A stretch of DNA of 52,997 bases, taken from IMG/VR virus record IMGVR_UViG_3300009506_000043, positions 1 through 52,997 of that record. One strand, 5' to 3'. Source of the DNA: a virus. Its lineage: Duplodnaviria; Caudoviricetes. The notes under the pieces were generated by a model. The model did not search any database and was not told where the DNA came from. It saw only the letters and a list, made by a program, of their open reading frames with translations. Below, in pieces: positions 3,387 to 47,967 of the stretch. Position numbers and translations under genes: made by a program. Numbering within the stretch: position 1 is the first letter of the stretch; every line of letters begins with the position of its first letter.

Positions 3387-4277
3387 TTAAGCGGCATCCT
3401 CAAAGACGTAGTAATCTCCGTCCTCAAACTGGTAGTAATCCAAATCCTCAAAGAGCCATGCATCGTCCGGCACTTCTTCCGGTTCGCCCTCACCAGGTTC
3501 TTCCGGTTCAGTGACCGGGTACTTGACGTATTGCGTGATTGCTGTAGTCCGCTGGAAGCCGGTCAAGTCCGGCGTTTCGCGAGCAGCGTTGTAACCCAGG
3601 TTGTCTGGGCTCATTGCGCGCCGGTCGAAGTCGATACTGGCGGATAGAAGATCGAGGAAGTGTTGATACTTCTGGCCGCGCTCATCGTCCAAGGTGATCT
3701 CAGCCGCCGCCATGCAGGCAGCCCGAATGGTTTCAGCGTGAGCAGGACCACCCATTGGATATGGATTGGCGCTAGAGAGCATTTCCTGTCGGGCGTAGTA
3801 ACGACCGCGCAGGACATAAGCAGCATCGGGAGTGCGCCAGAGAATAAGCAGGAATGTCTGATCGGATTGGCCATCTGCAATCCGGGGGAGAATGGCGCAA
3901 TAGGTCGGAGCGCCTGAACTGTCGCCGCGCTGCTGATGCCGGCGGATCAGACTTTCCGAGGTGAGCTGGACCTTGCCGTAAGCCGTTGAATCGGAGTAGG
4001 TCAGGGATCCATCCAGGCCGGCGAAGTCATCAGGCAGGCTATACTCGCTGACCCCGGAGATTGTGTTGATCGTCAGGAGCGGCCGGAGGAATGACCATTG
4101 ATGAGCCGACCGCTCGCCAGGCAGCCGGGGAGGTGTGTAGAAGAGTCGCAGGCCGGAAGAGAGAACGTCCTCGACGTCTGCCGTCTCATTCGTCGCCCAA
4201 TCATTCGGATTTCGTGAAAAACCTAGATAGCGGCCGATCTCCCGTCGGAGGCTGTCATAGGTCACGCCGAGAGTCAT
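3387..4277 (-). CDS. Head-tail adaptor / tail tubular protein A-like
   Basis: WSFL..TINTISGVSEYSLPDDF and W/YPTPDAAY-like motifs typical of podovirus adaptors; downstream of capsid genes. Confidence 0.7.
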   Translation of the reverse strand: MTLGVTYDSLRREIGRYLGFSRNPNDWATNETADVEDVLSSGLRLFYTPPRLPGERSAHQWSFLRPLLTINTISGVSEYSLPDDFAGLDGSLTYSDSTAYGKVQLTSESLIRRHQQRGDSSGAPTYCAILPRIADGQSDQTFLLILWRTPDAAYVLRGRYYARQEMLSSANPYPMGGPAHAETIRAACMAAAEITLDDERGQKYQHFLDLLSASIDFDRRAMSPDNLGYNAARETPDLTGFQRTTAITQYVKYPVTEPEEPGEGEPEEVPDDAWLFEDLDYYQFEDGDYYVFEDAA

Positions 4278-4585
4278 GCGAGTTCAGGGTCGTCTCCTTC
4301 GTCGTCAATTTCTTCGAGTTCTTCAAGGTCAGCAGGTTCTGATTCGGGTTCCTCGTCTTCAATCGCCTCAAGCGGAATTTTCCCTGCGGCGGGATCATTC
4401 CAAAGCACGCGGCTGAACTGGCCGTCGATCAGTTCGACCAATGTGTCGTGATTCTGCGTGTAGCCAGGGAGCAACTGCTGGATCCCGAGTTGTTGACACA
4501 GGACGGGGTTCGGGATCACGGCCAATTGAGATTCAATGAACTTGGACAGTGGAACAAGTTCGACCTGTTGTTTCCTTCGTGGCAT
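4274..4585 (-). CDS. Hypothetical protein with acidic C-terminus
   Basis: 103 aa, 4-nt overlap with next gene. Confidence 0.6.
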   Translation of the reverse strand: MPRRKQQVELVPLSKFIESQLAVIPNPVLCQQLGIQQLLPGYTQNHDTLVELIDGQFSRVLWNDPAAGKIPLEAIEDEEPESEPADLEELEEIDDEGDDPELA

Positions 4586-4690
4586 TCATCCTTCCTTGTA
4601 AAAAGCGGCCTGGCGGGCCAACTGGGCAGATCGAATCCAGAACGCAGAGCCCTAGGGTCCGATGTTTATGCCCACCAGGCCGAGGAACGA

Positions 4691-5173
4691 TCAGACGAAA
4701 CGAATCTTCTTGACGGCGGCCGTCGAAGAGGTATCCACGGTGTCGCAGGCAATCGCAACCGTATCCAGTTCGGTTGCTTCTGCCGTCAGGGTTTGGGCGA
4801 CCAACCCCCAGTCATCGTTGCCAATCATGAGCACAGTGGTTTCTGCGGTCATGTTGGCGTGGGTCAGGGCATTGACATAAGTCCCTTTGTGTGGCTCCGC
4901 GATCTGCACCAATCGGGTGTAATCGGTGCCGCTCTTGAGCCGACGGCCGAGTCCAACAATCACGCCTGCATAGGCGTTTTTGTGGCCGGTCTTCGGTTTC
5001 GTGACCACACGTCCCCTGACCATTTCATCCCATTCGCCTGCAGCGGGAGTATCGCCTACGGCGGTGTCGTAGCAGACGTTGTAGCCGATCGCCACATCTT
5101 CGGTGTCGTTATCCTTGTAGATCACCCACCGCGTGTGAACGATCGGTGCGGCGCAAAACTGAACATTGTGCAT
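4691..5173 (-). CDS. Putative capsid decoration/cement protein
   Basis: 160 aa, beta-rich, directly after major capsid gene, strong RBS. Confidence 0.55.
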   Translation of the reverse strand: MHNVQFCAAPIVHTRWVIYKDNDTEDVAIGYNVCYDTAVGDTPAAGEWDEMVRGRVVTKPKTGHKNAYAGVIVGLGRRLKSGTDYTRLVQIAEPHKGTYVNALTHANMTAETTVLMIGNDDWGLVAQTLTAEATELDTVAIACDTVDTSSTAAVKKIRFV

Positions 5174-11640: not shown

Positions 11641-11920
11641 CGTCCTTTAGTGCAGCCTCCTTCTTCATTCGCTGATAGGTGCGAACCAAGTGAACATGGT
11701 AGAACTCTCGGAAGTGGCCGAGAGCATAGACGAGTAATCCGTAGGCGCCTTCACTGACATTCGGAGGGCGCCGGCGGAAATTCAGAGGCTTGCCGGATTC
11801 CTTGTAGCAGACTTTGCCGTCAACCAACTCGACAAGCCGAATGACCTGATAAACCCACCAGACATCCTCGACGATCGAACCCTCAGAGACAGCCTTATTC
11901 AGACTGATTGCGGGCTGCAA
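11453..11920 (-). CDS. Putative terminase small subunit
   Basis: Directly upstream of and overlapping terL; start uncertain (TTG at 11920 proposed instead of 12211). Confidence 0.45.
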   Translation of the reverse strand: MQPAISLNKAVSEGSIVEDVWWVYQVIRLVELVDGKVCYKESGKPLNFRRRPPNVSEGAYGLLVYALGHFREFYHVHLVRTYQRMKKEAALKDDGRRQFELLDQIDQYLVEEANAARQCSTCGRPLGEADRILPRSERAIRQSGVSQEDSGSGGV

Positions 11921-14900
11921 TGATTTCTCGACGCGCTGTTGCTCTCGCTGTCGTGAAGGCCGCTTCGATTTTCTTAATGTCTCGGGCGGTGGGAGGGTCG
12001 TGGAAGTTGATGCGATTGGCGCGCTCAAGGGCGATCTCTCCTGATCGCTGCACGTATCGCTCGTATTCACCTGTCGACAGTAATTCCTTTCTGCCACGGA
12101 TTGTAATGAAGGGCTTCGGCAGACTGGGATGATATTGCAGGTCCCGTTCCGCTTCGGTCTGATGGGCCTGATTCCATTCCCAAAGCACAACATCTGCGGG
12201 GACTCGCTCACTCAGCCGCTTACCCAGCTTGACTGGTGAGATAACACGATACCACCAGGGAGTGGCTGGTGAAGAAGGCTGGATCACCCGACCCCATTTG
12301 TCGTACTTGTGAATCACGCCAGAGACAGGCAACTCGGCCTTCGCGAGCGTCTTGCGAACCTTAGTGCCAAAGTCGTCACCCTTGCGAATCCGGGTGTCAT
12401 ACACCTCATTGCGACCAACTCGCCAGGGCTGCCGAATGATGTTTGGTACAAATCCAACCAGGACATTCTGAGTCAACTGCGGAATGCCAGAAGCCTCTGG
12501 ATCGGTGAATGCGTTCACGATATCCCCGAGGTTCTGCAGGAAAGTCTTGTCCGTGATCTGCCGCAGGAATGCATCCCATTGAGAATCCGTAAGCGACTTG
12601 CCTTTCTGCCGATTATCCAGAAAGTCAATGATCGCTGGCAGGATTGTCGAGGCTGGTTCGAGGCCGGCATAGCTGAAGAATTGCTGGCCACCCCACGGAT
12701 ATCGGATGGAAAGTGGCGGTGCAACTGCCCAGGCTAGATCACGCGCGAGATAGTTGCGCGGTGAGCTGCCGGTGATGACGGGCGTGTCGTCATCACCCCC
12801 ATAGTACAAGCTGGCAACAGCAGCCGTAATTGCACCCCCAACCATCTGTCGTGCCAGGATCTTATTGAAATTCACTTCATGGCCGTGTTTCTCACTACAG
12901 AGTCGCCAGAGGGGCCAGAGCCCGATCCCTGGAAGTCGGGCCATTGCCGCCTCAAAGTTGTTGAGGGGAAAGTTATAGGTGGGAATCAGGAAGCGCCCAA
13001 ATGGCAGCTTGCGAAGACCTCTCGCCGCCTTCTTTAGTTTCTGCGTGCCAGACCACCCAGCCTGCATGAATGTGGCTTCTAATGCCTCATTGTACGCCAG
13101 CGTCCACGCAGTCGAGCGTCGATCCTTCATGGCGCTTTCGATGTAGCGGGCCATGTGCTGCTTATCGAGTCCAAATCGCTTGGCCTGGCGGTAGGCATGG
13201 GCACCGACCACAGAGTAAGCGTAGATCGTCTTGAACATATCATCAGAGGCGCTGAGTGGCCGCCAGCCAAAGCTTCGCACAAAGCGACCCCATGTGCCTT
13301 TGAGGGCAAACCGTCTATTAAGTACCTCGGTCTTGTAGACATCCCAATCTTGGGCAGCGTAATTCGTGGTGATCCCCAGCTGTTCCGCCAATGCGGATTG
13401 CTCATATGCCCAAGTGCTGGCAAAGTTACGGAGCCCTGGAGCAAGGCCCGCCCACATTCCCTTCAGGATGTATTTGAATTCGCCGAGCTGGGCCCCGGAT
13501 ACTTTCTTGCCAAAGAACTGCTGAGCCGCTTCATTCAGAAGTGCCTCGACGAATCGCTCCGGCCCCAACATCAGCAGGCCGAATCCGGTGTTGGAAATGG
13601 CATTCTTCGCATGTGTATGGGGGCCGCTGAAGATCGAATTGCTGTAGAACTCAAACATCTTGTCGGCCCAGGTTCCGCCCGCCCGCTCGATCATGATGAC
13701 ATTGATCAGCTGCATTGTTGCCAGCTCATCCTGGAGGGCGTCTTGCATCTGGTCAATGCTGATCTCCAACTCCCTGAGCCTCTCCAGGATAGCCCAAGTC
13801 GTTTCTGGGCTGTCAGTATCGAAGATGGCTTCCATGATTTTGCGGGCTCGCTTTGCAACGGGAGAACCCATGCAGATTGGATCGCGCATGTTCAAGACGC
13901 GGCTGATCCAACTTCGGGCCTCGCGGCGATAACGAGACAGATACCACGCATCATCAGCAGCCTCGCGACTGCCAAGTGCGCCGACCGTCATCGCATCGTT
14001 TAAGACCATGTTGATCACGACCATTTCCTCTTCCCATTTCCGAGGATCGTTGCCGAGATCAGCGTGTTCATGTGCCTTCATGTACTCCAGAATTCGATTT
14101 TTCTCCCCGTCGGCATCAGCCTGAACTCTTTTAGCGGCCTTCGCTTCAGCCTCGGCATGGGGATGATACTCGGGCGGGCCGATCTCTTCATCATATTTGT
14201 ACTGGAGGGTGCGACCGGCGATCGTCGTGACCGTATTGGCCCGACCAAGATAACGCTGACGTTCCATGAAGGAACGCATCGCATCGGTCTGGGTAATGCC
14301 CTCCCAGTTGACTCTGGGAGGTGGTTCGCTGGGAGCGAACATCAGAGTAGGTCCCACTCCGGCAATGGCACGACCGCTTATCCCTGGCGGGACTCGTTCA
14401 GCAATCCTTGCAAGACGCGCTTCACCAGCTCGCGTCTCTGTTCCGGGGAGAGGGCCGGTTGGGACGGGCGGCGCTTGGAGTCTTGCCGCCTTGCGGAGAT
14501 TCTTTGGAGCAACTGCTCGGAGTTTTCTGAGGGCTTGTTGGATTTCGGGATCATTTAACAACTCCGCGAATTCAGGAACGGCAGCAATGCTTTCCTGCCT
14601 GAGGGCCTTCACGACCTCCTTGCCCTTGGCTTTGGCCTTCTCCCCGATTTTAGCAGCTGAGGCGGCTTTCAGGAAGGACCAGATGGCGGATTGTGCCTCG
14701 GCAGGTTCAATGTTCAGCTGCTGGGCTGCGCGACGCACAACGGCAGTCAGGGCCAGGTAGAGGGTATGGGAATCAAAGGCGTTATCGGGTCGAACTCCAA
14801 AGAATTCGGCGAGCCAGCGGTCGACCGTCACGGCAGATAGGTCGCCAAGGAGATTCTTGCGAAAACTACGGACCTTCCAGCCGCTCAGCTCCGCGTTCAA

Positions 14901-17900
14901 GGGATTAACCTCAGAAAACGCAGTCACAAGATTGTTTACACTTGCCCCCAATACTTTCGGCTGGAGCCCCAAGAGAAACTCACGAACCTTGTCCGGCTCA
15001 AATGGCTCACCAGCCTCTTCCCAAGCATCCCAAATACGGAGCGCTTCCTTCAGATTCGTCTGTGCGCTGCGCTGTGGAGACGTGGCGGCTAACACATTTA
15101 CGAAACGCGGCGCCTGATCTCCGAAGATGGTAAACAGTGCCTGATGGGCGAATTGATACCACTCTTGCTTGGCGGCGCCGGCCTGAGCGGCGGCGACTGC
15201 TTCCCCGGTCTTGCCTTTGAGTCCCTCGAAGTGTTGAACCACTCGCTGTAGATAAGCCGGCCCAAGACCCCCCAATTCCTCCTCGGTTAGGTAGCGGGCA
15301 ACAGCTGGGGCCGTGAATGTGAAGAGTCCTTTGTCGCCGGCCTGCTGTGCTTCGATCAAGGATAGGAGCGTCTCCCGTACCTGCTGATCGTCAACCGAGA
15401 ATTTATGGTGAGCCTCTTCGCTGAGTTGATCAGCTATCTCCTGCAGCCATTGGTTATATCCGGTCCAGTCATCATCGGTCCAATTCTGAGAAACAAGAAA
15501 CATTCGCTGACTGTAACTGAGCGGCGCATTGGGAGCCTCTTGCCGCTGATGACTGTCCGGCGGCCCATAAAGGGCATCATTCAGCACTTCGGTAAACAGG
15601 TCGACGTCCTGGGTCAGATCGAGAATCTTCTCGTCACCCTGCCGAATGAGAGCGAAGGCGCGTGCCGCGTAATCCGGCTCCTCTGTGGCTGAGACCCCCT
15701 CTTCGTATCCCACGCCGCCCATAATGTCGGGAAACTCTGCGGCGACCGCTCGGCCAATCGTGTCCCACGGCACATCCATGCTTGAATGGTCCTTGCCGGC
15801 ATTCTCGACCTTGCTTAACGTGATCTTGGTCTGGCCGCTCTTGGCCCGAAGCATTTTGCGGGCAGCATTGCGGCGCCGCTTGGGATCGTACTTGAGTGCG
15901 TGCCGTTCACGCAGGTCCTTCAGAATCTCCTTGGTCCATTCCTCCTTTCGCTCGGGCGTAACGGTCTGGTTTTCCTGTGCAGCCCAAGCGTCAATTGCTT
16001 CATCTATCCGCGCCATTGCCAGGGCCTGGCCATTGACGTCATTACTCGGGCGGCCTGGACCTTTGATCAGTTCCGCCCGGCGAGCCGCAACCCGATCTCG
16101 CTGCTCCTTCAATTCATTCAAGACCGCCAGGGCATCAGGATCAGTAAGGTTCTTGGCTCGCCCGAACAACTTCAATAGGGCATCCACCAACCGCTGCCAC
16201 AATGTCGGCTGCTCTTGTAGTAACTGCTCACGGAAGGCGCCATCTGTGAAGAAGGTGCCGACCATCTCGGCCATTGCTTCCCGCCAATACCAGTCCGTCT
16301 TGTTGCCTTTGTCGTCGATCAGGTATTTGCGATACCCGGTCATATCGGGCGGCAGTCTTTTCATGTACTGCTGACCGAACTGATCAAGGCGCGCCTCTCC
16401 CACCAGAGCCTTCAAGACGTCCACTTCAGTAGCATGGGCCAGCTCGTGGCCGGCGGTGTACCAAATTGCCTCCTCAGCGGCTCGCTCGTCCAAGTAGAGT
16501 ACGCGAGGCCCTCGCACTCGTTCATCGACAAAGGAGATTTCTGCGGTGCTCGTGATAATGCGGACGTCATGCCCGAATGCTTGGGCTAATTGCTGCGCCG
16601 CCTTTTCTTGCGAAGAAGACGGTTCCCGCATCGAGGTAACTTCCACAGGCACGCCGAGTTCTTTCATCCGGTCATTGAGCTGTTCCAGCGATAACACCGC
16701 AGGTGGTGCGAGCGGGGGCTTGGCCTTCTCTGGAGCGGCGGGGACGGGCTGTATTTCCGTACCGGTGAAAAACTCCCCGAATCGCTTTCGGAGAATCCTG
16801 CGAACCTTGTCGTAATCGTAGTCCCTCATCCCCCTCCCCATGTCTTGCCGAATGTCAGACATGAGTGCTGGTACGCCTCCGAAACCGTACTGATGGAAGG
16901 TTGGATCGCCACGCTCAATCACATCGAAACGACCCATTACCTTATCAGTAAACGGCTGGTCCTCGTTGAGAGTGGAACCTTGTGGGACATCTAACAGCTC
17001 ACCAAACTCCGCCTCTATCTCCTGGGATATACGATCTGCTTTGTCCTTACTGCCAAGGTAGATGGTATAGTCTTTACCTTTCTGTCCACTACTGCGGCCC
17101 TCCTTGAATAAAACTCCCTTCTCTCTCAGCTTCTGCGTAACCGCATCCCTATTCTCCTTCGAGACGGCTAAATGCAACTTCCAGCCAGCACCCTCTACTG
17201 CCATGTCTTTGTGCATATCAGGAGCATTCGGGCTGCCGGCTGGTGGAACGTAGTATCCAGGAGTCTTCGCCGGCTGACTTACTGGTATTTGCGGGACGAC
17301 GGCTTCGACCTCGGCAGCTGCTGTTGCTGGACCCAACTCCCCAGGCGTCAGCTCCTGATAACGACCAGTGCGCTCAACCATGCGCTGGGCGAGCGCCCGC
17401 CTGATCGTGTCCTCATCCTGCTGGAGATCCTCCTTGCTCAAGGGATAGCCCATTGCCTTCGCAGCCGATGCCAGCCCTTCTTTGTCCAGATCCCTCAGCT
17501 GGTCATATTGGCGCTGGGCGCGTTCTGAAAGTGGGGCTGGCGCTGCCCCTACTTGTGCTTCCGGTGCTTGCTGTGCTTCGGCTTCCGCCCCGTGGCGTAG
17601 CTCAGGCCGGTTTTCGCCTGGGCGATTCTGATCGCTGATCCCTCCGAGTACCCCTTCGCCTGTAGGTGGCGCTTCAGGCGGGCGACTTTCGAGTTTTTCG
17701 GCATGACTGATCTCCTTCTGATAGGGTTTGACTTGCTTAGCCAGGATCTCCCGAATCATCGATTCGCGGGACCGAACTTTTGGAAATCCAAATCTCTTGG
17801 CAATATCCCACTTTGACATTGCCTCCAATTCCTGACGAATAGCATCCTCGGCTTCAGGAAAGGCCAGAACCTTTTCCTTCTGAGCCTCTGGAAGCTCCAG

Positions 17901-19676
17901 CACGCGGAGAAAAGATGGACCACCTCTTGGTGCCTGTTGTGCCGCGAGCCGCTCTTTAGACATCTGGACGATTCTGGCGCGGGCCAGGGCGTCCAGCCCC
18001 AGGTCGGCCAGGTTCTTCCTTGGAACCCCTGCAGCTTCAGCAAACTGGGTCCGGGTAGGAATCTCTGGTAGGTTAGCGAGTGCGTCCCATTGGTCGGGAT
18101 GTTGACTAATGAAGTCGCGGGCCAACTGCGTCCTTTTGTGCTCAGCCGATACTTCCGCCTCGGGAATTTCCTCGACCGGAGTTGGTTCGGGGGTTTCCGT
18201 GGCCGGAATTGGCTCGGGGGCGAGAACCTCCTGAACAGCGGCTTGAAACTCAGTCGGCTCGGCTGCAGGTTCGGCCGGCGGCGCTTCCGTGGCCTTTTCC
18301 CGTTCCTTCCTTGCCGCCGCCAGTCGCTCGCGGAAGTCTTTGGCTAAAGTGATCTGCGGGCCTTCCCCCAGCGCCTCCCTTATCACAGCGGCCCCAGCAG
18401 GGATCCCAAGGAAGCCCAGATACTGAGACATCAGATCGACAGCCAAATCCTTGTAGCGACCTTCCTTGATTTCCTCCAATGTTCGACTGTCGCCAGGCGA
18501 GACCGTCGCGGCTCGGGCAAACTCCTCAAAATACTCTTCCACCATTTCAAGCGGAGGTGCCTGCAGCTGCGTGCGCTTGGCGAATTTGGCGACCTTGCCC
18601 TTACCGAAAATGCTGGCGTGCTTGTTCATCATGAATTGCGCCAGCTTCTTGGGAAAATAGCCCTTCTGCGCCATCTTCCGGGTGGTTCCGCTGATCGTGC
18701 CACCAAGTGCCTCTGAGGCAGCCGTGATCGATTGGCCGATGAATGCCTTGGAGTAGGCAGTCAGTGGGCTTTCGCCTTCCGTCAATCGACGGCGCTCGGC
18801 CTCGGCGGCGATTTGCTGAGGCATGCCAAGGGCCTGGACGGCAGATCGAGCAACGACGGCGGCCACGCGGCCAGAAAGCTTGCGCGTAACGCCCTTAATG
18901 CCGGCCTTGGTGGCGGCTCGCATCGTCATCTTCGCGGCCCCTGCTCCGGCGCGAGCGGCCAGGCCGGCGGGCAGTGCGAATTCGGCAACATAACCTGGCA
19001 GCGAGGTCATGATATCAACGCCGCCCTGCGTCACTCGCTTATACCAGGCTTTCTGATCCTGATTCTCGTGCCAGCGATTCTCCTGGATGAATTGCCCAAG
19101 AAGTAGGTAATCACCTGAATCAGCTTCACCGGCATTGAAGCGATTGACGGCACCTCGGAGTTTGACCAGCTCACCGACTTCTACGCCGGTCCCCACAAAA
19201 GGAATTCTGCTGACCCAATACTTGAGGTTCTCGCGATTAGTCGAGAGATCCTCGAACATGGCCATTGCGCTCAGGAGTCGCTTTTCGGGCAGGGCCTGGT
19301 CATCTGCCCAATCATTCGGCTGAACGCGAGTGTAGGAGGCCAACCATTCGTCCTGATCAATTTGGCCTAGGGCAAATCGATAGTCCTCGGAGCTGCCCTG
19401 CCCTGCGCCTACACGGCGAATTGCTACCTGGGTCGGACGAAGGCCGCTTTCTAATCCGGCTTGAATGTCTTCGGGGACGGCAAACTCAATCTGCTGAGTG
19501 AGTTTGCCAATCCCCTGAGAGGCAGTCTCCATCAGCTTTGAGAGCGGCTTCTGTTCTCCATTGGCGGCTTGCCGGGGACCTTCCTTAAAGAGTCGCTGCA
19601 GACCCTCGTGTGAAATCTCAAGTCCATCGCCGAGAATCCATTTTGTGCCATCCCAGGTTGCGGGTATTTGGGCCAT
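11895..19676 (-). CDS. Giant multidomain internal virion (ejection) protein, polyvalent-protein-like
   Basis: 2593 aa; HELAH zincin motif, GWKLHL..GKDYTIY module, WY..AATSPQ..KVRSF..VTVDRW..QSAIW module, helical C-terminal core-protein region. Confidence 0.75.
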   Translation of the reverse strand: MAQIPATWDGTKWILGDGLEISHEGLQRLFKEGPRQAANGEQKPLSKLMETASQGIGKLTQQIEFAVPEDIQAGLESGLRPTQVAIRRVGAGQGSSEDYRFALGQIDQDEWLASYTRVQPNDWADDQALPEKRLLSAMAMFEDLSTNRENLKYWVSRIPFVGTGVEVGELVKLRGAVNRFNAGEADSGDYLLLGQFIQENRWHENQDQKAWYKRVTQGGVDIMTSLPGYVAEFALPAGLAARAGAGAAKMTMRAATKAGIKGVTRKLSGRVAAVVARSAVQALGMPQQIAAEAERRRLTEGESPLTAYSKAFIGQSITAASEALGGTISGTTRKMAQKGYFPKKLAQFMMNKHASIFGKGKVAKFAKRTQLQAPPLEMVEEYFEEFARAATVSPGDSRTLEEIKEGRYKDLAVDLMSQYLGFLGIPAGAAVIREALGEGPQITLAKDFRERLAAARKEREKATEAPPAEPAAEPTEFQAAVQEVLAPEPIPATETPEPTPVEEIPEAEVSAEHKRTQLARDFISQHPDQWDALANLPEIPTRTQFAEAAGVPRKNLADLGLDALARARIVQMSKERLAAQQAPRGGPSFLRVLELPEAQKEKVLAFPEAEDAIRQELEAMSKWDIAKRFGFPKVRSRESMIREILAKQVKPYQKEISHAEKLESRPPEAPPTGEGVLGGISDQNRPGENRPELRHGAEAEAQQAPEAQVGAAPAPLSERAQRQYDQLRDLDKEGLASAAKAMGYPLSKEDLQQDEDTIRRALAQRMVERTGRYQELTPGELGPATAAAEVEAVVPQIPVSQPAKTPGYYVPPAGSPNAPDMHKDMAVEGAGWKLHLAVSKENRDAVTQKLREKGVLFKEGRSSGQKGKDYTIYLGSKDKADRISQEIEAEFGELLDVPQGSTLNEDQPFTDKVMGRFDVIERGDPTFHQYGFGGVPALMSDIRQDMGRGMRDYDYDKVRRILRKRFGEFFTGTEIQPVPAAPEKAKPPLAPPAVLSLEQLNDRMKELGVPVEVTSMREPSSSQEKAAQQLAQAFGHDVRIITSTAEISFVDERVRGPRVLYLDERAAEEAIWYTAGHELAHATEVDVLKALVGEARLDQFGQQYMKRLPPDMTGYRKYLIDDKGNKTDWYWREAMAEMVGTFFTDGAFREQLLQEQPTLWQRLVDALLKLFGRAKNLTDPDALAVLNELKEQRDRVAARRAELIKGPGRPSNDVNGQALAMARIDEAIDAWAAQENQTVTPERKEEWTKEILKDLRERHALKYDPKRRRNAARKMLRAKSGQTKITLSKVENAGKDHSSMDVPWDTIGRAVAAEFPDIMGGVGYEEGVSATEEPDYAARAFALIRQGDEKILDLTQDVDLFTEVLNDALYGPPDSHQRQEAPNAPLSYSQRMFLVSQNWTDDDWTGYNQWLQEIADQLSEEAHHKFSVDDQQVRETLLSLIEAQQAGDKGLFTFTAPAVARYLTEEELGGLGPAYLQRVVQHFEGLKGKTGEAVAAAQAGAAKQEWYQFAHQALFTIFGDQAPRFVNVLAATSPQRSAQTNLKEALRIWDAWEEAGEPFEPDKVREFLLGLQPKVLGASVNNLVTAFSEVNPLNAELSGWKVRSFRKNLLGDLSAVTVDRWLAEFFGVRPDNAFDSHTLYLALTAVVRRAAQQLNIEPAEAQSAIWSFLKAASAAKIGEKAKAKGKEVVKALRQESIAAVPEFAELLNDPEIQQALRKLRAVAPKNLRKAARLQAPPVPTGPLPGTETRAGEARLARIAERVPPGISGRAIAGVGPTLMFAPSEPPPRVNWEGITQTDAMRSFMERQRYLGRANTVTTIAGRTLQYKYDEEIGPPEYHPHAEAEAKAAKRVQADADGEKNRILEYMKAHEHADLGNDPRKWEEEMVVINMVLNDAMTVGALGSREAADDAWYLSRYRREARSWISRVLNMRDPICMGSPVAKRARKIMEAIFDTDSPETTWAILERLRELEISIDQMQDALQDELATMQLINVIMIERAGGTWADKMFEFYSNSIFSGPHTHAKNAISNTGFGLLMLGPERFVEALLNEAAQQFFGKKVSGAQLGEFKYILKGMWAGLAPGLRNFASTWAYEQSALAEQLGITTNYAAQDWDVYKTEVLNRRFALKGTWGRFVRSFGWRPLSASDDMFKTIYAYSVVGAHAYRQAKRFGLDKQHMARYIESAMKDRRSTAWTLAYNEALEATFMQAGWSGTQKLKKAARGLRKLPFGRFLIPTYNFPLNNFEAAMARLPGIGLWPLWRLCSEKHGHEVNFNKILARQMVGGAITAAVASLYYGGDDDTPVITGSSPRNYLARDLAWAVAPPLSIRYPWGGQQFFSYAGLEPASTILPAIIDFLDNRQKGKSLTDSQWDAFLRQITDKTFLQNLGDIVNAFTDPEASGIPQLTQNVLVGFVPNIIRQPWRVGRNEVYDTRIRKGDDFGTKVRKTLAKAELPVSGVIHKYDKWGRVIQPSSPATPWWYRVISPVKLGKRLSERVPADVVLWEWNQAHQTEAERDLQYHPSLPKPFITIRGRKELLSTGEYERYVQRSGEIALERANRINFHDPPTARDIKKIEAAFTTARATARREIIAARNQSE

Positions 19677-38087: not shown

Positions 38088-38714
38088 TCACCCCTCCTGA
38101 CCCCCGGCGGTGAAGCCAAGGGCTTCTTCGGTATCTGCGACCAAGTTAGCCTCTTCATCGATTGTCCAGCCAATGAGCCACCGGTTCAGTAACTCTTTCA
38201 GCCGCTGATTATCCTCACGAAGTTGTGCCTCCCTGCCGCGCACTTTATCGACGATGGCAAACTGGCTGACGACGATCTGAGCCATTTGGTTCTCGGTAGA
38301 ATCAAGACACTCTTGCGAACCTCGTTCCAGCTTGGTGACTACTCGACGCAAGTTGGTGAGGATTTCGTTTTTCGTTTCCATCCCAGCCATCCTTTCTGGG
38401 TTAGTCACCTTCACAAATCCAAGAAGGTCGTCGTTAAACTCCTGCAGTGCCACATGGGCGATCGCTTGACATTGATCAAGCGCGACAGCGCGCCCCTCAA
38501 GGTATGCCTCTCTCATATCCGCTGGACCCCTCAAGGGAACGCGACAAATCTTCTTCAGCGCCTTCAGTAGGATTTCCTGGCGCCGGATCAATTCAGCGTT
38601 GCGTTCAATATCGTTCATCACAGCCTTCCTTTGCACCGATGGAATCCATATGGCCCGGCCAAACTCGGCTTGCTTGCGCGATTCGGGATCGGGTGGCAGT
38701 TGATCAATCCCCAT
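38088..38714 (-). CDS. Coiled-coil hypothetical protein
   Basis: Start reassigned to MGIDQ after AAGGAGG; the longer 311-aa call runs through the pentamer array. Confidence 0.6.
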   Translation of the reverse strand: MGIDQLPPDPESRKQAEFGRAIWIPSVQRKAVMNDIERNAELIRRQEILLKALKKICRVPLRGPADMREAYLEGRAVALDQCQAIAHVALQEFNDDLLGFVKVTNPERMAGMETKNEILTNLRRVVTKLERGSQECLDSTENQMAQIVVSQFAIVDKVRGREAQLREDNQRLKELLNRWLIGWTIDEEANLVADTEEALGFTAGGQEG

Positions 38715-38735
38715 CTCACCCGCCTCCTTCACGCT

Positions 38736-38830
38736 GTCTTGTCTTGTGCAGTCCGAAGATGTCAGGGCTGATGTCGTCCAGTCGTATGGCATGCGATGCC
38801 GTGTGGTGAAGTGCGGTCGTGCCGCGTCAT
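38736..38830 (-). ncRNA. Pentamer-periodic array 2 (candidate guide RNA), 19 units
   Basis: Plus-strand units gtctt gtctt gtgca gtccg aagat gtcag ggctg atgtc gtcca gtcgt atggc atgcg atgcc gtgtg gtgaa gtgcg gtcgt gccgc gtcat; pattern R-T-S-N-N. Confidence 0.7.
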
Positions 38831-39330
38831 AACTTCTTGTTATTCCCATCCGAGAACAGCCGTAGGGTATCTCCGATCGCCAGCCGACCATTACGGGCCG
38901 TGACCGCCCCGAGTAACTTCTGTTGCGACTTCGGGCGCATGAACAGTGCCACGGTGCCAAGTACACTGGCGGCCAGGCTGTGGCGTGTCTGGGCCTCCTC
39001 GGGTAGTTTGTCGAATTCAACACGCTCCAGGCGCCAAAGCTTTCGCTTGGTCAGCCGCTTGAGTGAGGTCATGGATTGGTCGCTGACGCTGGCCTGCTCC
39101 TGGGGCGTGAGTAGTTTGATTCCTTGGCGCGGGATGCAGTCAAACAGGCGGCCGGTTTCGCGCTCGGCTATTTTGCGGGCAGTCATCAGGCAACCGCGCA
39201 TCTCCTTAGTGACGTCGGCGCCGGCGATGACGCTCAACACCCCGTAGCTGATTAACTCATAATCATTATGCTCGACCGACTCAATCAGTCGCCGGGCAAG
39301 CATCTGTGCTTCGATTTTCGGTGTAAACAT
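38827..39330 (-). CDS. Accessory protein of RAMP locus (possible winged-helix N-terminus)
   Basis: 167 aa, GAGG RBS, lies between the two arrays. Confidence 0.7.
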   Translation of the reverse strand: MFTPKIEAQMLARRLIESVEHNDYELISYGVLSVIAGADVTKEMRGCLMTARKIAERETGRLFDCIPRQGIKLLTPQEQASVSDQSMTSLKRLTKRKLWRLERVEFDKLPEEAQTRHSLAASVLGTVALFMRPKSQQKLLGAVTARNGRLAIGDTLRLFSDGNNKKL

Positions 39331-39349: not shown

Positions 39350-39569
39350 GAGTTGTGTTGTCAGGTGCGGCGTCGTCGAATGTAGTCGTGAGCGATTGAG
39401 TCGCTCGTTGTCTAATGTGAACTTGGGGCATCGAATTCTGTCGGATGGAGTGACGTGAGGTGATGACTAGATGAGATTCGTCCCATGATGTCTAGATTCG
39501 TCTTGAGAAAACCCATTGAGATGCGTGTCGTGATGAAACGATTCATGAAGATGCGTGTCATGGTGTAGT
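39350..39569 (-). ncRNA. Pentamer-periodic array 1 (candidate guide RNA or RNAs), 44 units
   Basis: Intergenic; in 5-nt phase from 39350, position 1 is purine in 43/44 units, position 2 is A/T in 41/44, position 3 is not A in 42/44, positions 4-5 vary. Confidence 0.7.
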
Positions 39570-39583
39570 TCCCAGAATGACTC

Positions 39584-40141
39584 TTAGCTCCAGTCGACCT
39601 TTAGGACGTCGAATCGACCATAGAATCCGTTGTTGCTGGGCCGGAATGTACCGAGTCCGATGAATTGTCCCGCATCGCGCAATGTGAGTTCAAAAATCTC
39701 CTCGGTAATGATGTCATCTAACACCAGCACCTCGGCAATCGCTTCCCACTTCATGATGCGAGGAAAGATTTTCCATACTCGGCCCTTACCGCCCCGCTTG
39801 CCGTCAGCCGGCACGTACAGGTGAAATTTGTCAACCTTCTCCAATGGGACTCCAAGCAGCAGGGGCTCGACGCAGAGGATGCCGGCCACGAAGTGCTTTG
39901 TATACTTCTGGTTGCCCTTGCCGGGAATTTTCATGCTTTTGTAAGACGCGGCCTCGGAGAGACAGTTCTTCAGTGCCATTGGCGGAATGAAGACCTCTCC
40001 CTCTTCAGTGACATGCGCCTTGCGCTTCCAGATGCGCTCCTCCCAATCCTCCCAAGTCGCATCCCTAGGCTTTGTCTCGGGCACTGGCGCCGACTGACAC
40101 ATCGGCGTCACGGACTTGAGTAGACAAACTGCAGTCTTCAT
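39584..40141 (-). CDS. Stand-alone Cas7/RAMP-like RNA-binding protein
   Basis: N-terminal strand LKSVTPM, VFIPPMALKNCL (cf. RAMP IPGSSLKG), C-terminal Gly loop GQFIGLGTFRP..GFYGRFDV. Confidence 0.75.
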   Translation of the reverse strand: MKTAVCLLKSVTPMCQSAPVPETKPRDATWEDWEERIWKRKAHVTEEGEVFIPPMALKNCLSEAASYKSMKIPGKGNQKYTKHFVAGILCVEPLLLGVPLEKVDKFHLYVPADGKRGGKGRVWKIFPRIMKWEAIAEVLVLDDIITEEIFELTLRDAGQFIGLGTFRPSNNGFYGRFDVLKVDWS

Positions 40142-40160: not shown

Positions 40161-40205
40161 GACGGGTTCTGACGGGTTCTGACGGGTTCTGACCAGTGTG
40201 GCCAT
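40161..40205 (-). repeat. (AGAACCCGTC)x3 tandem repeat / 9 pentamer units in RAMP 5' leader
   Basis: Plus strand gacgg gttct gacgg gttct gacgg gttct gacca gtgtg gccat. Confidence 0.8.
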
Positions 40206-47671: not shown

Positions 47672-47772
47672 TTCTCCTCCAATTGACGCCGTTCAAATCC
47701 ATCGGCAGAGGATACATCGAGAAGGCGAAGCACAGCAACTTGTCACATCGAAACAGGACCAAATCGATGTGT

Positions 47773-47808
47773 TGTCACTTCCTGTCACTTCCTGTCACTT
47801 CCTGTCAC
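47773..47808. repeat. 10-bp tandem repeat (TGTCACTTCC)x3.6
   Basis: Degenerate copies also at 48041-48067 and an inverted copy at ~48099-48109. Confidence 0.85.
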
Positions 47809-47967
47809 GTCGAAAAACGTGCGCTTATGACACGCGCACAAGAGGTGCGAAATGCTTCGCGCAGAGAAGGTGTGAATTTCCCGATGAAAACAGCACAGTC
47901 TCAATACGGGATTTTGAAAGTGGCAGGGGGTGCGCAGGCAGTGCTTCGGATAGTGCTTCGCCTGCAT

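Follow-up and report, generated by a model that had tools for sequence, protein, structure and literature searches.

The closest described counterparts of the tracts analysed here are the VIPR (Viral Interference Programmable Repeat) systems, a form of RNA-guided gene silencing that was first described in 2026 and is the subject of three preprints from that year. VIPR has been proposed as an ancestor of CRISPR backbones and is presented as a minimal RNA-guided DNA-binding system. The systems are phage-borne and consist of a Vipr protein of the RAMP type (~20 kDa), an accessory vap gene and vrRNAs made up of 9-16 YNNGG (GGY/NN) repeats with a constant 3' tail (10.64898/2026.04.26.720920). The 5-nt units of a vrRNA follow one another in tandem; Vipr holds the constant triplet of each unit, and the two variable bases (NN) pair with double-stranded DNA, one target base, usually the wobble base of a codon, being skipped per unit. 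Rival phages or satellites are thereby silenced at the level of transcription. Seven types are distinguished, some of which have a vap product predicted to bind DNA, and the vrRNA, which is ~100 nt long, co-purifies with Vipr (10.64898/2026.04.26.720920). One Vipr protomer binds each repeat, and the GGY bases are held by H17, D177, R138, W178 and R179 among other residues (10.64898/2026.04.26.720927). The repeats given in the main text of the discovery paper are YNNGG, NNNGG, YNNNG and NNNNG, all of which end in G, and for "a related consensus" its authors point to a supplementary figure (10.64898/2026.04.26.720920). The VIPR papers further draw a parallel with the Cas7/Csm3 proteins, which like Vipr place one protomer on each short RNA segment and impose periodic gaps in pairing by means of a thumb.

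The DNA examined here, referred to as the window, is the whole stretch of 52,997 nucleotides, a virus record of a temperate phage that encodes an integrase, an O-like replication initiator, a RuvC-like resolvase, a terminase and tail genes. On its minus strand a 185-aa gene, which we designate vipr, is followed by a tract of 5-nt units (Array 1), a 167-aa vap-like gene, a second such tract (Array 2) and a 208-aa gene (Table 1). The locus is present in marine-sediment metagenome DNA of one study, where the matching DNA contigs are the source contig and fragments of it; a search of public RNA runs found none that contains the locus.

Table 1. Coordinates of the predicted VIPR locus and its immediate surroundings, in window numbering.
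Feature	Coordinates	Strand	Remarks
Three exact direct copies of GTCAGAACCC	40164..40193	-	Fill most of the 63 nt that separate vipr from the upstream ORF
vipr, 185-aa Cas7-like RAMP protein, predicted vrRNA-binding filament subunit	39584..40141	-	Profile match to SUSP1 Vipr, and fold
Array 1, 43 in-phase 5-nt units (N-W-Y + NN)	39353..39567	-	Single register; ends gacAA cacAA
vap-like accessory gene, 167 aa ("partner gene" of the initial annotation)	38827..39330	-	Homologs downstream of vipr in relatives
Array 2, 19 units (S-A-Y + NN), predicted vrRNA repeat tract	38734..38830	-	Last units cacAA gacAA gacAG, the terminal signature
AAGGAGG, ribosome-binding site of the next gene	38723..38729	-	6 nt past Array 2; direct sequence reading
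Downstream 208-aa gene	38088..38714	-	ATG at 38714

Array 2 was first noticed on the plus strand, where positions 38736-38830 divide into 19 in-phase 5-nt units that all begin with a purine and carry G or C at position 3, with T at position 2 in 16 of them. Our recount agrees with these figures of the initial annotation, and the series of sense-strand NN pairs that it listed was reproduced. Read on the minus (sense) strand, from 38830 to 38736, a constant triplet S-A-Y alternates with a variable NN pair; S and Y are present in 19/19 units and A in 16/19. The triplets are of six kinds, namely GAC (eight units), CAC (four), CAT (four) and GGC, GCC and CTT (one each), and the register is maintained over the 19 units with no insertion or deletion. 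GGY is found in a single unit of Array 2 and in 0/43 units of Array 1, and in 16/19 units of Array 2 an A takes the place of the second G. The tract was also said to run from the stop codon of the preceding gene to the ribosome-binding site of the next, and it does: its first unit takes in the TGA stop (38829-38827) with which the 167-aa gene ends, and its last unit lies 6 nt before the AAGGAGG motif upstream of the 208-aa gene.

The periodicity of Array 2 is far above chance expectation. Among 200 sequences simulated from the window with a first-order Markov model, no in-phase stretch of 19 units contained more than 10 strict R-T-S/S-A-Y units, compared with 16 observed, or more than 16 loose R.S units, compared with 19 observed. 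A motif-free scan for period-5 information across the whole window gave Array 2 a score of 0.72 against a 99.9th percentile of 0.56, exceeded only by that of a 10-bp tandem repeat at 47756-47834. Array 1 scored 0.5-0.6, and both arrays are among the top period-5 signals of the window, alongside two unrelated 10-bp tandem repeats. The strongest signal in the scan (0.82, in reality a period of 10) comes from the ~3.5 tandem copies of TGTCACTTCC at 47756-47834, just downstream of the integrase gene region, which look like protein-binding iterons and not like vrRNA. The RNA fold z-score of Array 2 was 0.07 and thus indicates no stable structure, an Rfam scan of the locus, Array 2 included, matched no family, and consensus scans of the minus strand next to the arrays detected neither promoter-like nor terminator-like sites.

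Array 1, which lies in the 253-nt spacer between the 185-aa and 167-aa genes, is more degenerate than Array 2, with Y at position 3 in 42/43 units, A at position 2 in 28/43 and either A or T there in 40/43. It contains fourteen kinds of triplet, also with no indel across its 43 units, and possibly comprises more than one vrRNA. Both arrays of the window use the same unusual set of triplets and end in two AA units. Upstream of vipr, the triple repeat of GTCAGAACCC occupies the position at which 43/56 relatives have an array; in a 5-nt register it reads GTC-AG / AAC-CC, and it could be an operator or a very short, degenerate array.

The initial annotation called the 167-aa gene that precedes Array 2 the partner gene; the predicted RNA-binding partner is instead encoded by the 185-aa gene upstream of Array 1. 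A profile built from 52 homologs of the 185-aa protein matches PDB entry 36pp_D, "SUSP1 Vipr protein", with an E-value of 2e-8, the homology being restricted to the C-terminal half (profile positions 96-182 against chain positions 108-190). The AF2 model (pLDDT 91) has type VII Cas7 and Csm3 as its best Foldseek matches (E 8e-9), and VIA-align superposes it on type VII Cas7 with a Z-score of 12.1 (156 aa aligned, rmsd 4.7) and on Csm3 with a Z-score of 11.9, residues 1-185 being covered. Features of the model include a beta-hairpin (residues 104-129) with a Gly/Arg-rich tip and a G-loop (162-177) ahead of the last strand; the open reading frame is intact, and the G-loop from G162 to F177 is invariant across the family. 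On the strength of the profile match and the modelled fold we identify this protein as the Vipr of the phage. It was recognised by fold and by the PDB match, not by family scans, and is the only RAMP-like product among the 30 window ORFs that were scanned. Those scans (Pfam, PHROGs) found no Cas family, and the window contains no CRISPR-type repeats and no Cas5, Cas6, Cas10 or adaptation genes.

Relatives of this protein were found at 75 loci in viral contigs, with full-length matches that are 44-58% identical, and at five further loci in genome contigs from very different MAG lineages. One of these MAGs, which carries locus L094, also encodes a second and much more distant Vipr-like protein on another contig (G005:C33:20303-20839; E 1.4e-20 to the family profile). 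The window protein itself has a long branch of 1.5 changes per column and no more than 58% identity to any relative, and it departs at 14 positions from the family consensus of 85% or higher; the changes include S12T, Y14M and S15C, all in the first strand, and, within the glycine-rich loop, R165T and R169S. A HMMER alignment places D177, W178, R179 and R138 of SUSP1 Vipr at family positions 165, 166, 167 and 126 respectively, with residue identities that agree with the published numbering (10.64898/2026.04.26.720927). Opposite two of these contact residues the window protein has F126 (for R138) and T165 (for D177).

The 167-aa gene has 43 homologous ORFs downstream of vipr among the 75 related loci (blastp E<=1e-3, duplicates included). 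Its AF2 model (pLDDT 94.7) comprises an N-terminal helix-helix-helix-hairpin followed by a helical bundle, and shows a weak likeness to winged-helix proteins (Foldseek E>=0.03; VIA Z 7.0-7.4 for residues 1-81); no Pfam family matched. The 208-aa gene, for its part, lacks a homolog after vipr at all 75 related loci, has no Pfam or PHROG match and is probably not part of the system.

Comparison of the related loci, 65 of which are distinct, revealed that arrays are a regular companion of vipr. Where enough flanking sequence was available, a period-5 array begins within -25 to +60 nt of the vipr stop codon at 58/62 loci, and an array ends no more than 120 nt before vipr at 43/56. All of these arrays lie on the vipr strand in intergenic DNA, and most read GGC-NN, which corresponds to the published GGY/NN unit. 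Clean arrays run to between 10 and 40 units, with a median of 17. The paired AA units at the 3' end, which had been suspected of being a signal shared by the two window arrays, recur throughout the family: AA-AA occurs within the last six units of 78/121 clean arrays, as against 13/1289 interior adjacent pairs. In the family, GG and then a T-rich stretch usually come after this ending; the window arrays have the AA-AA units without the GG/T-rich part. No Rfam family, the hammerhead included, was matched in 11 related loci.

The variable bases of the arrays can differ widely between loci whose triplets are largely shared. Loci L040, L042 and L043 have vipr genes that are 100% identical at the DNA level, together with arrays of 24, 27 and 35 units in which triplet identity is 79-89% and NN identity 24-42%. 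L011 and L012, whose vipr genes are 99.1% identical, share 93-96% of triplets and 47% of NN positions. That NN series differ between loci with identical vipr genes is expected of guides. The three loci L040, L042 and L043 provide a clean natural case of guide replacement, with essentially unrelated NN series. The reverse is seen in a group of related prophages (L045, L048, L049, L050, L052, L056, L072 and L075; array at ~3560-3633), in which vipr has diverged to 91.6% DNA identity and the NN pairs of the 14-unit downstream array remain 93-100% identical; the guide has thus changed less than the protein gene, a hint that selection on a single target is strong.

We conclude that Array 2 is most probably the vrRNA repeat tract, that is the guide RNA, of a phage-encoded VIPR system, and place the probability of this at roughly 85%, the guide function being assigned by homology. 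The observations behind this reading are the periodic anatomy of the tract, the homology and fold of the neighbouring protein, the gene-array architecture conserved in relatives, the turnover of the NN pairs and the shared AA-AA 3' end. Like the type II system of Escherichia phage SUSP1 and that of a Pseudomonas fulva prophage, the locus is carried by a phage, has a small Cas7-like Vipr in a two-gene layout of vipr plus a vap-like gene, and possesses intergenic tandem 5-nt units on the vipr strand that are made up of three constant bases, the third of them a pyrimidine, and two hypervariable ones, with what may be a constant 3' end; in these systems arrays occur upstream and downstream of vipr. 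Several features set it apart or count against the assignment. The handle is not GGY, since the S-A-Y triplet has A where the published consensus and the alternatives in the main text keep G, and the triplets are mixed; because the repeats in that main text all end in G, an S-A-Y handle goes beyond the repeats tested so far. Array lengths are 19 and 43 units in place of the published 9-16, the 3' ends consist of two or three AA units with no pseudoknot-like tail detected, Array 2 abuts a stop codon and a ribosome-binding site, the Vipr is divergent, and exact-seed searches yielded no target. We regard Array 2 not as a new kind of system but as a variant, characterised by the S-A-Y handle and by arrays that are long and end in an AA-AA signature, not in a structured tail.

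If the mechanism follows that of the SUSP1 and P. fulva systems, Array 2 would be transcribed and processed, and one protomer of the window Vipr would bind each 5-nt unit. Adjacent protomers would sequester the constant triplet, here S-A-Y in place of GGY, and the two variable bases of each unit would be presented for pairing with double-stranded DNA, with one target base skipped per unit, (xNN)n. The target would presumably be a competing phage, prophage or satellite, which would be silenced. The earlier proposal of a guide array that ignores one target base per unit is thereby upheld in part: the skip is the published rule for VIPR of the GGY type, and a Vipr, a vap-like accessory gene and the array architecture are all present, but the triplet is S-A-Y and exact-seed searches found no gapped target. 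Class 1 CRISPR effectors, in which Cas7/Csm3 filaments assemble on crRNA, have the same RAMP fold as the window Vipr (Z about 12). They differ in having a 6-nt period with one flipped base, compared with 5 nt and three unpaired bases in arrays of the VIPR type, and the present system is phage-encoded and has neither a repeat-spacer array nor cas genes. The VIPR assignment would account for two tracts that are otherwise hard to interpret in the intergenic DNA of this marine-sediment phage.

The heterogeneous triplets of Arrays 1 and 2 could mean decay, and the arrays might then be relics, or sponges or decoys that bind Vipr without directing it to a target. Standalone vrRNAs acting as decoys have been reported (10.64898/2026.10.15.759431), Array 1 is even more mixed in its triplets than Array 2, exact-seed searches found no target, and the window Vipr has diverged from its relatives. 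It is nevertheless unlikely that these arrays are remnants, sponges or decoys. A 5-nt register persists without an indel over 19 and 43 units with a pyrimidine at position 3 in all but one of them, vipr is intact with an invariant G-loop, both arrays share the unusual triplet set as well as the AA-AA end of the family, and mixed triplets are also encountered in relatives with long and regular arrays (L022, L029 and L064).

A triplet recurring every 5 nt is also a property of the trp leader RNA of Bacillus, in which eleven (G/U)AG triplets with spacers of 2-3 nt are read by the oligomeric TRAP protein, the bases of the spacers being free. Array 2 might by analogy be a cis-acting leader, read at each triplet by an oligomeric RNA-binding protein that controls translation or termination of the 208-aa gene and requires no target in trans. 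Such an RNA was our main reading at the outset and was dropped when the 185-aa protein was matched to Vipr. The triplets, spaced 2 nt apart, do resemble TRAP sites, Array 2 has a stop codon on one side and, 6 nt away on the other, a ribosome-binding site, and binding of Vipr could incidentally occlude that site. A leader function is nonetheless very improbable, given that vipr is conserved with the arrays in relatives and the 208-aa gene is not, that the NN series is wholly replaced between phages with identical vipr genes, which a role as mere spacer does not predict, and that the 185-aa product belongs to the Cas7-like RAMPs and has a homolog for which guide binding has been demonstrated. 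TRAP also has an unrelated fold, forms a closed ring and regulates in cis, unlike the window protein, which by homology would form a Cas7-like filament on an RNA whose spacers vary as guides do. Family scans of the window detected no TRAP-type protein, and no terminator-like site was seen on the minus strand near Array 2. We attach hardly any weight to the notion that Array 2 is coding sequence, an N-terminal extension of the 208-aa gene, even though a frame is open from a GTG at 39023 through the array (ORF 38088-39023, 311 aa). This ORF overlaps the conserved 167-aa gene out of frame, the ATG at 38714 has a strong AAGGAGG before it, codons would not produce a period of 5 nt with two free positions, and the equivalent arrays of relatives lie in intergenic DNA.

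Within the VIPR assignment, the handle triplet is itself variable across the family. Among the 75 loci it is GGC at about 50, GAC at eight (L005, L008, L011, L012, L014, L017, L020 and L058), CGC at ten (L018, L019, L021, L029, L033, L047, L060, L064, L066 and L068) and unclear at seven; of the five loci in genome contigs, two are GAC-type and one is CGC-type. This variation is accompanied by substitutions in Vipr. Excluding six unclear rows and the window protein, the combination of Y126 and L110 (F126Y, V110L) is found in 8/8 CGC-type proteins and in 0/37 of the GGC or GAC type. R165F is confined to three GAC-type loci (L008, L011 and L017), as is S15G (L005, L008 and L011). On a maximum-likelihood tree the CGC label changes four to five times and the GAC label six times, at least three changes being forced by well-supported branches in each case. 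When the trait columns were removed from the tree, Y126 and L110 moved with CGC in 3/3 independent pairs, a number too small for significance in the sign test (p 0.25), and GAC agreed with F165 or G15 in one to two of three independent pairs. Covariation of the handle triplet with residues aligned to the published RNA-contact residues is suggestive, not proven. We tentatively suggest that one clade of Vipr proteins may have had its guide-RNA handle re-coded several times, from GGC to GAC, to CGC and, in the phage described here, to a relaxed S-A-Y, with substitutions at positions aligned to the handle-contact residues of SUSP1 Vipr, a scenario that we consider possible and somewhat less probable than its opposite.

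If handle switching does occur, it would render co-infecting VIPR systems orthogonal, and it could represent an escape from rivals that supply their own vrRNAs in order to hijack the Vipr of the phage. The locus suggests that natural Vipr proteins are not confined to GGY handles. Arrays of the S-A-Y type are invisible to the published array caller, which models units as GG[C/T]NN (10.64898/2026.10.15.759431), so that, should the S-A-Y, GAC and CGC handles be functional, surveys based on a GGY caller would undercount VIPR arrays. Functional alternatives of this kind would also mean that the interface between handle and protein is evolvable, with a few candidate specificity positions open to mutation, and could furnish mutually orthogonal pairs of Vipr and handle for multiplexed programmable repression.

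Targets of Array 2 were sought under the 1-nt skip rule, using exact seeds for the scans of sequence collections. There is no self-target in the window (best match 23/38), and the best match among 94 loci, 23/32, equals the maximum obtained with shuffled unit order. In the gapped search of viral databases that had been proposed for this array, exact 10-unit seeds (units 1-10 and 7-16) had no matches in the IMG/VR viral contigs. A 10-unit seed had none in genome contigs and two in metagenome contigs, each of which reached just 24/40. Seeds of eight units (5-12, 1-8 and 9-16) gave 12, 12 and three matches, all of which extended to 18-26 of 38 positions, the level expected by chance. No target with an NN match of at least 80% thus emerged from the exact-seed searches of the viral, genome and metagenome collections. 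For the guides of relatives, exact patterns of L011 and L008 found no matches, and neither did the 14-unit guide of L091, allowing up to three mismatches, in 239 genomes of the order to which its host belongs. A trial with 600 sampled 10-unit guide windows against ~0.48 Mb of loci produced three matches at 18/20 or better with a skip of one, compared with two for shuffled guides, the database being far too small for a fair test. Since these scans used exact seeds or small databases, the blanks neither support nor weaken a guide function.

Two further features came to light during the analysis. On the minus strand of the window, positions 11895-19676 hold an ORF of 2593 aa with a DUF7178 segment and a weak match to an internal virion protein; this is a giant structural or ejected phage protein. 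Among the relatives, L013 (~3546-5093) and L065 (~3591-4944) contain long runs of multiple arrays that are parted by conserved spacers of ~40 nt, and the spacer of L013 carries the inverted repeat CAGTGGG...CCCACTG.
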